Shown here piece by piece: positions 33,808 through 34,604 of a stretch of 34,690 nt of DNA. The stretch lies in UHGV virus genome UHGV-0268713, one strand, 5' to 3'. The translations under genes and the position numbers were made by a program. The notes under the pieces are model-generated. The model was not told the DNA's origin, made no database searches, and saw only the letters and a program-made list of their open reading frames with translations. The stretch's first letter is position 1. Every line of letters begins with the position of its first letter. The DNA is from a virus.

Positions 33808-33830
33808 ACAAAAAAGCCCGCGCTGCGGGC
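33808..33830 (-). terminator. Rho-independent terminator for the accessory operon
   Basis: GCCCGC-GCT-GCGGGC hairpin (33816-33830) followed on the minus strand by TTTTTTGT. Confidence 0.55.
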
Positions 33831-34375
33831 TATTCCTTCCATTTATCAGAAAAAAGATCTTCTTCTAAAGGCATTGGTTCTGTTTTTGTTTTCTCAAAGA
33901 ATTGATAACTGATAGTGATTGCTGCCTCTTTAAACTCTTCTTGCTCAGTTATGTTGTGAGCATCTGCGTCAACAAAAAACATAACCAGCGCATCACGATT
34001 GTGATTTACCGAATAAACTAAAAAGCAATCACTTGTTGGTATGCATTTTACTTGTACAGACGCTATATTTTTCCATGCATCCCAAGATGATTTTTTACCA
34101 GTGTGTTTTTTATCACTATCTTCTGGAATATAGTCTTGGTTATCGACATGAGTATGCCTGACATTTAGTTTAAGCATTTCTGTCGGACGAGCAAATGCAG
34201 CATCTTTACCAAGAGATGGATGGTATCCCGTTTTCCAATACTGGGTAAAGGCATCAGATACTTTCTTCAGCTCAAGATCAGATGCACAAAGGGCCGAGAA
34301 ATTTTGCGTATGCAATACTCGACCCTTATATCTGACAATTTGATTTTTATCATTCTGCGACGCAGACGAACTCAT
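33830..34375 (-). CDS. Hypothetical protein (181 aa), AT-rich accessory gene
   Basis: ATG at 34375 with an AAGGA Shine-Dalgarno; low GC; no confidently recognised domain. Weak resemblance of HTH and LVY...H segments to YafO-type toxins is unverified recall. Confidence 0.55.
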   Translation of the reverse strand: MSSSASQNDKNQIVRYKGRVLHTQNFSALCASDLELKKVSDAFTQYWKTGYHPSLGKDAAFARPTEMLKLNVRHTHVDNQDYIPEDSDKKHTGKKSSWDAWKNIASVQVKCIPTSDCFLVYSVNHNRDALVMFFVDADAHNITEQEEFKEAAITISYQFFEKTKTEPMPLEEDLFSDKWKE

Positions 34376-34529
34376 AATTTTCCTTATTGTTACGAGAATC
34401 AAAGAAAGCGCGGGATACGCGACTTGCGTGATCTTTTGTCATAGTAACTTTTACGTACTCTACGCTTCCATTGAAAGAACGTCTTGCGGCAGCTTGCGCT
34501 CTACGCATCTGCAATTTTTCGTTTCGCAT
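34350..34529 (-). CDS. Small basic protein (59 aa) overlapping the start of the downstream gene
   Basis: Hand translation MRNEKLQMRRAQAAARRSFNGSVEYVKVTMTKDHASRVSRAFFDSRNNKENYEFVCVAE; GAGGT Shine-Dalgarno 6 nt upstream; overlaps the 181-aa gene by 26 nt in a different frame. Confidence 0.35.
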   Translation of the reverse strand: MRNEKLQMRRAQAAARRSFNGSVEYVKVTMTKDHASRVSRAFFDSRNNKENYEFVCVAE

Positions 34530-34560
34530 GACATTACCTCATATCTCATAAGTTCATTAC

Positions 34561-34604
34561 ACGGATTAATAAAAATGAAACCAATCCGTTTACCCTTGAG
34601 GTAA
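34561..34604. promoter_or_regulatory. Promoter region of the accessory operon with a perfect operator motif
   Basis: TTACCCTTGAGGTAA (34590-34604) plus inverted repeat ACGGATT-N15-AATCCGT (34561-34589), 25-70 bp upstream of the ATG at 34529. Confidence 0.45.

Follow-up and report, generated by a model that had tools for sequence, protein, structure and literature searches.

A YafO-family toxin homologue and its small candidate antitoxin behind a repressor-type operator in a Uetakevirus-like prophage

The dinB-yafNOP operon of Escherichia coli K-12 is under LexA control and encodes the toxin YafO immediately downstream of its small partner YafN. The closest design known to us is the three-component PaaR2-PaaA2-ParE2 arrangement that was reportedly found by Hallez et al. 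in 2010 on prophages of E. coli O157:H7, in which the antitoxin PaaA2 has 63 amino acids (aa), is largely disordered and lacks a DNA-binding domain, while a separate phage-repressor-like regulator controls transcription. Prophage genes that harm the host, stay silent under the prophage repressor and are turned on at induction are also familiar from kil of phage lambda and kilR of the Rac prophage. Here, we describe a two-gene cassette in the virus genome UHGV-0268713, a stretch of 34,690 nucleotides (nt) that we call the window, where an open reading frame (ORF) for a basic protein of 59 aa precedes and overlaps an ORF for a YafO-like protein of 181 aa behind an operator that recurs across the phage. 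On balance, we read this cassette as a prophage-borne, type II-like toxin-antitoxin pair that is probably under the control of the prophage repressor.

The window represents a prophage of the Escherichia phage TL-2011b/phiV10 type (Uetakevirus; epsilon15/phiV10-like podoviruses), and its cassette region is 99% identical to phage TL-2011b. Of 5426 complete E. coli genomes, around 60 have the cassette, which is absent from phiV10 and epsilon15 themselves. Its elements are the following:

34627-34632, minus strand: -35 hexamer TTGCAG, read from the sequence, 17 nt upstream of the -10 hexamer
34604-34609, minus strand: -10 hexamer TACTAT, sharing its final T with the first position of the operator
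34590-34604, no strand assigned: operator TTACC-N5-GGTAA, a perfect palindrome (TTACCTCAAGGGTAA) that overlaps the end of the -10 hexamer and the predicted start site
34561-34589, minus strand: inverted repeat ACGGATT-N15-AATCCGT in the leader, a possible hairpin of the 5' untranslated region
34537-34540, minus strand: Shine-Dalgarno sequence GAGG of the 59-aa gene, 7 nt from its ATG, with surroundings (tatgaggtgatgtcATG) that are conserved in relatives
34350-34529, minus strand: 59-aa ORF with ATG start, matching phrog_6685; candidate antitoxin of an unnamed family
34381-34385, minus strand: Shine-Dalgarno sequence AAGGA of the toxin gene, read from the sequence and located inside the 59-aa ORF (translational coupling)
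33830-34375, minus strand: 181-aa ORF with ATG start at 34375; YafO-family (RelE/HigB-fold) toxin homologue
33807-33831, minus strand: intrinsic terminator, AGCCCGC-AGC-GCGGGCT followed by T6, found by scan and folding

Both ORFs and their overlap of 26 nt are as a first-pass annotation of this DNA had described them, and their co-oriented layout with a single promoter and terminator is kept in all loci. The longest form of the toxin ORF begins with a TTG at 34402, but we place its start at the ATG because all homologues begin with MSSSAS. The same annotation had rightly called the small protein basic (pI 10.0; 12 lysines and arginines versus 7 aspartates and glutamates) and the 181-aa gene AT-rich (37.4% GC versus 48.2% in the window). 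We note that this basic partner, together with the insertion and the acidic tail of the toxin described below, reverses the charge polarity that is usual for toxin-antitoxin pairs.

Judged by homology, the 181-aa protein belongs to the YafO family within the RelE/HigB superfamily of mRNA endonucleases. It matches the Pfam family YafO_toxin (PF13957), the family of E. coli K-12 YafO, with 25.9 bits (gathering cutoff 25; E 1.1e-5), and RefSeq/PGAP already annotates it, both on E. coli chromosomes and in TL-2011b, as "type II toxin-antitoxin system YafO family toxin". A toxin-subfamily profile built from 21 relatives and searched against 1.84 billion representative sequences retrieved only 72 proteins, and at the weak end of these are canonical YafO proteins of 131 to 132 aa that score 83 to 93 bits against PF13957. 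Profile-profile comparison of the subfamily alignment with 12 canonical YafO proteins using hhalign gave a probability of 99.7% (E 2.9e-27) across 129 columns, roughly the whole length of YafO, and brought the GxD..RP, HxH, (T)SD and AH motifs into register. For the conserved family motifs F/GxGR/KD..RP, HxH, (T)SD..LxY and AH, the residues that are invariant or nearly so in the subfamily (G56, K57, R63, P64, H74, H76, S115, Y121 and H140) occupy the same motif columns in canonical YafO, and the predicted fold of the protein is compact, alpha/beta and RelE-like. By homology, its product would cleave mRNA and arrest translation; E. coli YafO is an endoribonuclease toxin, though its dependence on the ribosome is disputed (PMC8546651).

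Compared to the 132 aa of E. coli YafO, the protein has 181 aa, with an insertion of ca. 35 residues (81-114; modelled with low confidence) and a C-terminal tail (168-179) of invariant acidic-aromatic character, MPLEEDLFSDKW (M168 to W179), neither of which is found in canonical YafO. From the ribosome-dependent mRNA endonucleases RelE, HigB and YoeB, with which it shares only 3% to 17% sequence identity, it differs by this insertion and tail as well as by extra N-terminal helices. Together with the marginal Pfam score and a pI of 5.98, such additions would fit an inactive or repurposed RelE-fold protein that has lost its nuclease activity and binds ribosomes or RNA without toxicity or acts as an anti-defense decoy, with the small ORF being incidental. 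We regard this as very unlikely, given that G56, R63-P64, H74, H76, S115 and H140, which are common to canonical YafO, are invariant across the subfamily and that the small ORF is always present and under purifying selection.

Other searches with the 181-aa protein or its family added no further relationship: there was no match in NCBIfam and no significant one in BFVD, a profile search of PDB sequences with the toxin family found nothing (YafO is without a solved structure), and scanning genome contigs with the 21-relative profile gave no confirmed relatives. The first-pass annotation had named YafO and RelE among the folds worth looking for, and it is with this family and fold type that homology and structure prediction align the protein. 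Its statement that neither protein belongs to a confidently recognizable family therefore holds for the 59-aa protein and not for the 181-aa protein (Pfam, hhalign and the RefSeq name), and the undescribed class of effector that it had considered falls away with the assignment to the known YafO family. It had also expected a clear structural homologue to speak against a toxin-antitoxin pair; such a homologue exists, but being a toxin family it favors that view.

The 59-aa ORF is a real gene under purifying selection. Across five diverged copies, the ratio of nonsynonymous to synonymous substitution rates is 0.17 to 0.36 over the 50 codons outside of the overlap, changes are in excess at third positions, and both other frames are closed. 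A small ORF of 48 to 63 aa lies directly upstream of the toxin gene in every family member with a readable neighborhood, at distances that range from the 26-nt overlap to a gap of 15 nt. The pair occurs in Uetakevirus-like phages of E. coli, Serratia and other hosts (toxin identity 57% to 100%), in the tail modules of two siphoviruses (44% to 48%), in the baseplate module of a Yersinia myovirus, in short metagenomic contigs and on a chromosome next to an ECF sigma/FecR/TonB cluster; a small upstream ORF is also found beside YafO genes of canonical length. Conservation of the pair in related prophages, which had been proposed as a check, thus extends to every locus examined and to several types of phages, and the partners diverge in step with their toxins. 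In these respects, the cassette resembles YafN-YafO, where the small gene likewise comes first and is immediately followed by the toxin gene, but not higBA, which does not share the antitoxin-first order seen here.

The partners have a loose pattern in common: the N-terminal helix is basic, the core follows h-x-h-[ST]-x-x-x-[AS]-x-x-h-S-[RK], and the C-terminal tail is short and either acidic or aromatic. Searches placed the 59-aa protein in no family of Pfam, NCBIfam or PADLOC, its sole match being phrog_6685 (function unassigned). Pfam has no family for any of the partner proteins either, a profile search of PDB sequences with the partner family found nothing, and a profile of the partner alignment returned only its own inputs, all of them named "hypothetical". 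The AF2 (AlphaFold2) model has a mean confidence (pLDDT) of 54, with helices at residues 2-21 and 32-38, and this low-confidence two-helix model would agree with folding of the partner upon binding, without proving it. Unlike the antitoxins of RelE, HigB and YoeB systems, the partner has no match to a helix-turn-helix or ribbon-helix-helix family, nor did the family and profile searches match it to any other DNA-binding family. It is not of the Phd/YefM type represented by YafN according to Pfam, and hhalign against E. coli YafN gave a probability of 0.06%. A likeness to the C-terminus of YafN that can be seen by eye (...ITRR...DFNDFKE versus ...VSRA...YEFVCVAE, in the same C-terminal register) has no support from hhalign and was set aside. 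From its position, conservation and co-divergence, we consider the 59-aa protein a candidate antitoxin of a new, unnamed type that is most likely the cognate neutralizer of the toxin.

In some relatives (L017, 680-1631; also L048, 609-1082), a second YafO-like paralogue with 28% to 31% identity is encoded ca. 2 kb upstream on the opposite strand. This paralogue is preceded by an ORF of 151 aa that has the partner motif at its C-terminus (...VPKMSVEKSHAISRRMF...ELYDDAE), a hint that a longer protein may end with the conserved partner core.

The perfect TTACC-N5-GGTAA palindrome that had been pointed out at the promoter is present, and while a lone palindrome of the 5-N5-5 form is not rare (ca. 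one per 1024 positions), this particular motif occurs at 12 sites in the window, eight of them perfect, against an expectation of 0.47 and with none of 100 shuffles reaching 12. Beyond the cassette, the sites are distributed as follows:

6222 and 6284: pair of perfect operators to the left of the helix-turn-helix repressor gene (6356-6940)
6996, ca. 7018 (degenerate) and 7044: three-part cluster in the region that separates the repressor gene from the divergent cro-like gene, with spacings of 22 and 26 bp, like OR of phage lambda
136, 7381, 9283, 9345, 12925, 12943 and 16048: single or paired operators before further transcription units, that of the terminase gene among them

The repressor gene is flanked by OL- and OR-like operator clusters. 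TL-2011b and phiV10 have retained these sites, whose half-sites are fixed and whose centers vary, and the repressor of the window is 100% identical to phiV10 repressor p40. At equivalent places of the epsilon15 genome, the RefSeq entry NC_004775 has the identical motif, ATTACC-N5-GGTAAT, as a protein_bind feature labeled "repressor, lysogeny", and it is this GenBank/RefSeq feature table to which the attribution of the motif to a repressor goes back. The epsilon15 repressor is reported to be 42% identical to that of the phiV10 type (PMC9782041), and epsilon15 uses the same operator motif. Judged by this recurrence, the operator belongs to the phage as a phage-wide repressor-type site and is not specific to the cassette, at whose promoter it is the only recurrent operator. 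The link to induction that had been suggested earlier is plausible for this very reason. Several of the 12 operators share their first base with the final T of a -10-like hexamer, sites also lie before terminase and portal-region genes, and the overall distribution suggests that the repressor directly gates many transcription units beyond PL and PR. In epsilon15 and phiV10, the operators gate core early or late genes, whereas here one of them would gate an accessory toxin operon.

At the cassette, a perfect site overlaps the -10 hexamer TACTAT, placing the promoter in the Uetakevirus repressor regulon by sequence, and the TACTAT/TACC junction is identical before the terminase gene (12925), with most relatives having TAATAT/TACC. 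A consensus-based promoter scan did not call this promoter due to a low score of the -35 hexamer, though the -35/17/-10 layout also exists in relatives and, with other cargo, in phage phiv142-3. Promoter and operator were thus correctly identified by the first-pass annotation except that both hexamers lie just beyond the span of 33830-34604 that it had given to the cassette. Its strong terminator was found as well, as a 7-bp stem with six GC pairs, a 3-nt loop and a T6 run that folds as expected and abuts the stop codon of the toxin gene. The additional inverted repeat that it had noted at the promoter does exist, but we give it no weight as a functional element: its fold is no better than that of shuffled sequences (z -0.79), and it is absent from the diverged relatives L037-L050.

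The -35 and -10 hexamers and the operator are kept before the small ORF in all Uetakevirus-like loci, even where the flanking DNA has diverged, and the operator was not present at any of the compared loci where the pair sits in other types of phages. In phiv142-3 (L055, 2791-3419), the same gated promoter precedes an ORF of 55 aa and an unannotated ORF of 146 aa with a YafO-like order of motifs (WHYH, RHSNEC..IHY), for which the match by hhalign is weak (E 0.011, probability 4%). In EC.W1-9 (L056, 2781-3582), it precedes an ORF of 108 aa that overlaps the gene of a DUF2335 membrane protein.

With such an operator in place, an antidote becomes dispensable in principle, and the 181-aa protein could instead be a lytic-phase effector of host shut-off, a nuclease that is kept harmless by the repressor alone and degrades host mRNA after induction. 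The 59-aa protein would then not neutralize the toxin but play an accessory part, for example by binding RNA or ribosomes, by acting as a chaperone or by coupling translation. The combination of a basic partner (pI 10.0) with an acidic toxin, the reverse of usual pairs, would agree with this, as does the literature on YafO-family toxins in Pseudomonas aeruginosa prophages and Pseudomonas tailocin clusters, for which no antitoxin has been named (PMC10449497, PMC4684702). However, the partner accompanies the toxin also where the operator is missing, i.e., in structural modules of siphoviruses and myoviruses and at chromosomal loci. An unneutralized toxin would be lethal in these contexts, so that the presence of the partner there is the main objection to a pure shut-off effector; tight coupling and co-divergence, being typical of cognate pairs, add to it. 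We therefore consider a host shut-off effector without antidote unlikely, and an accessory role of the small protein equally so.

Defense encoded by prophages commonly takes the form of toxin-antitoxin modules, and the cassette has traits of a moron, namely low GC content, its own promoter and terminator and apparent movement between unrelated phages. Its promoter also carries a single operator and no cooperative array. Basal expression in the lysogen despite this one operator could thus enable abortive infection, superinfection exclusion or addiction, with the toxin being released when an incoming phage or loss of the prophage upsets the balance. We find a defense or exclusion module of this kind rather unlikely, as is the release of toxin that it implies, since the perfect operator copy covers the -10 hexamer and start site and since sister phages use this gated promoter for unrelated cargo, resembling early-gene control more than lysogenic expression. 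Furthermore, PADLOC-DB v2 had no defense-model match at E <= 1 for any of the three proteins queried; the anti-defense module that had also been considered for this locus finds no support in PADLOC or elsewhere.

Our preferred reading, a toxin-antitoxin pair under repressor control, comprises the following steps. A sigma-70 promoter, TTGCAG-17-TACTAT, gated by the prophage repressor operator, would drive a bicistronic operon from which the 59-aa protein is made first, with the 26-nt overlap coupling translation of the toxin gene to it. The 59-aa product would neutralize the 181-aa toxin, a putative nuclease of the YafO/RelE type that would otherwise cut mRNA and stop translation. In this scheme, the phage repressor operator would take the place of the usual autoregulation by the antitoxin. 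The repressor, when bound in the lysogen, would hold the operon off or low, and upon induction or infection the operon would be transcribed along with early genes; at that stage, the toxin could serve to shut off the host, to commit the phage to lysis or to exclude competitors. The slot for cargo that the cassette occupies lies downstream of the Bro-N antirepressor gene, and related phages place other genes behind the same promoter.

Several observations weigh against this reading. The Pfam score of the toxin is barely above the cutoff (25.9 versus 25 bits), four of the five AF2 models are of low confidence, and the mode of action of E. coli YafO itself is debated (PMC8546651). The charge polarity is opposite to that of classical pairs (pI 10.0 for the partner, 6.0 for the toxin), and the link between toxin and partner comes from co-occurrence and co-divergence only. 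Repressor binding at the operator is taken from annotation or inferred, and one operator alone may repress only partially. Finally, the partner model is poor (pLDDT 54), so that the partner may hold a small DNA-binding fold similar to ribbon-helix-helix and, hence, autoregulate; a pattern of beta-strand and helix that recalls such proteins is visible by eye only.

The resemblance to type II toxin-antitoxin systems that had been noted at the outset is upheld by the order of a small gene and an overlapping larger partner, by the cassette's own promoter and terminator and by the toxin family, but not in its part as an undescribed class. With YafN-YafO, the locus further shares transcriptional control by a switch that responds to DNA damage or induction, which is LexA there and would be a phage repressor operator here; it differs in being phage-borne, in having a prophage repressor operator as its control site and in a partner that is not of the Phd/YefM type (no Pfam match; nothing from hhalign against YafN). 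The comparison to PaaR2-PaaA2-ParE2 reveals a common design with a toxin of the RelE/ParE-superfamily fold, a very small antitoxin, repressor-type control and location on a prophage. Still, the toxin is YafO and not ParE, no sequence similarity of the partners was detected, and instead of a dedicated third gene the presumed regulator is the master repressor encoded 27 kb away (6356-6940). Like lambda kil and Rac kilR, the cassette would be toxic prophage cargo under the prophage repressor, but those are single genes without an antidote that target cell division rather than RNA. The toxin family is thus known and the pair an unusual variant of a familiar system, departing from YafN-YafO as described and from textbook type II modules in its short, basic partner without a known domain and in the apparent handover of control to the prophage master repressor.

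A wider version of this idea is doubtful, and we put it forward only tentatively: the small partner would represent a widespread, unnamed antitoxin family that goes with YafO toxins of phages and chromosomes, and the Uetakevirus pair would be wired into the lysis-lysogeny operators, silent in the lysogen and firing only on induction or infection as a device for commitment or host shut-off. The partner may also correspond, as a protein of its own, to the toxin-binding tail at the C-terminus of YafN. YafO-family toxins in prophages and tailocin clusters are routinely annotated without a partner. A small partner that is conserved but uncalled would make these systems complete and their annotation better, as the 59-aa ORF is often overlooked by gene callers. 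If true, control by the master repressor instead of autoregulation would make the cassette a clear example of toxic accessory cargo that is plugged into a lysis-lysogeny circuit.

Around the cassette, the order on the minus strand is the end of the Bro-N gene (stop at 34676), a spacer of 147 nt, the 59-aa ORF, the 181-aa ORF, the terminator and a 53-aa gene. The following features were mapped in these surroundings:

34676-34690, minus strand: last 15 nt of the Bro-N antirepressor gene, flanking the cassette
34653-34690, no strand assigned: right arm of an inverted repeat, comprising the 3' end of the Bro-N gene and a weak hairpin; cut by the end of the window
33576-33737, minus strand: gene of a 53-aa signal/membrane-anchored protein (phrog_14503), 57% GC, downstream of the cassette terminator
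33488-33526, no strand assigned: left arm of the inverted repeat, comprising the 3' end of ant and 24 nt
32558-33502, plus strand: P22_AR_N antirepressor gene ant, flanking the cassette and ending at 33502
32489-32556, minus strand: sar antisense RNA (Rfam RF00262, 45.2 bits)
32318-32485, plus strand: arc-like gene, immI module
31766-32227, minus strand: Mnt-like Arc-domain gene, immI module, 32% to 33% GC
31112-31723, minus strand: ORF of 203 aa, function unassigned, immI module, 32% to 33% GC

The cassette was rightly said to lie between antirepressor paralogs, P22_AR_N Ant on one side and Bro-N on the other, which share a C-terminal domain (84% identity over 101 aa) and whose genes converge on it. 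Due to these near-identical domains, the three-gene segment is bracketed by an inverted repeat, which in TL-2011b spans 292 nt with 91% identity (L008, 31976-32267 and 33397-33688) and encloses 1129 nt; only 38 nt of its right arm are inside the window. In the viral contig L023, a P22-type ant gene lies directly upstream of the cassette and co-directional with it, which is the product expected from inversion or recombination across this repeat. Together with the repressor-gated slot downstream of the Bro-N gene, the repeat suggests a route for the swapping of modules between phages. The 53-aa gene is a separate moron inside of the repeat-bounded segment but outside of the operon, and it is kept in many relatives that have no toxin cassette. 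A hairpin next to it (33553-33570) reads as a plus-strand terminator for ant. To the left of the cassette, the region 31112-32556 forms an immI module like that of P22, and a large part of it is strongly AT-rich.

Elsewhere in the window, there is a tRNA gene between the terminase and portal regions (15652-15725, minus strand; 73 bits) and a match to the Rfam family sRNA-Xcc1 near the integrase-proximal early-left genes (2174-2263, minus strand; 62.9 bits). Some further elements of TL-2011b fall outside of the window. Upstream of its gp47 is a perfect LexA box (CTGTATAAATATACAG; 35542-35557), and relatives of this 85-aa protein in related loci match the antirepressor C-terminal domain with 42% to 44% identity; gp47 is likely an SOS-controlled antirepressor that feeds the same switch. 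Two more operator copies, at 34385 and 34478, are located upstream of the Bro-N gene (34260-34500), one of them abutting the promoter TTGATT-17-TTATCA. The start codon of the Bro-N gene is preceded by a structured leader of ca. 250 nt and then a terminator-like hairpin, which could be an attenuator or a small RNA.

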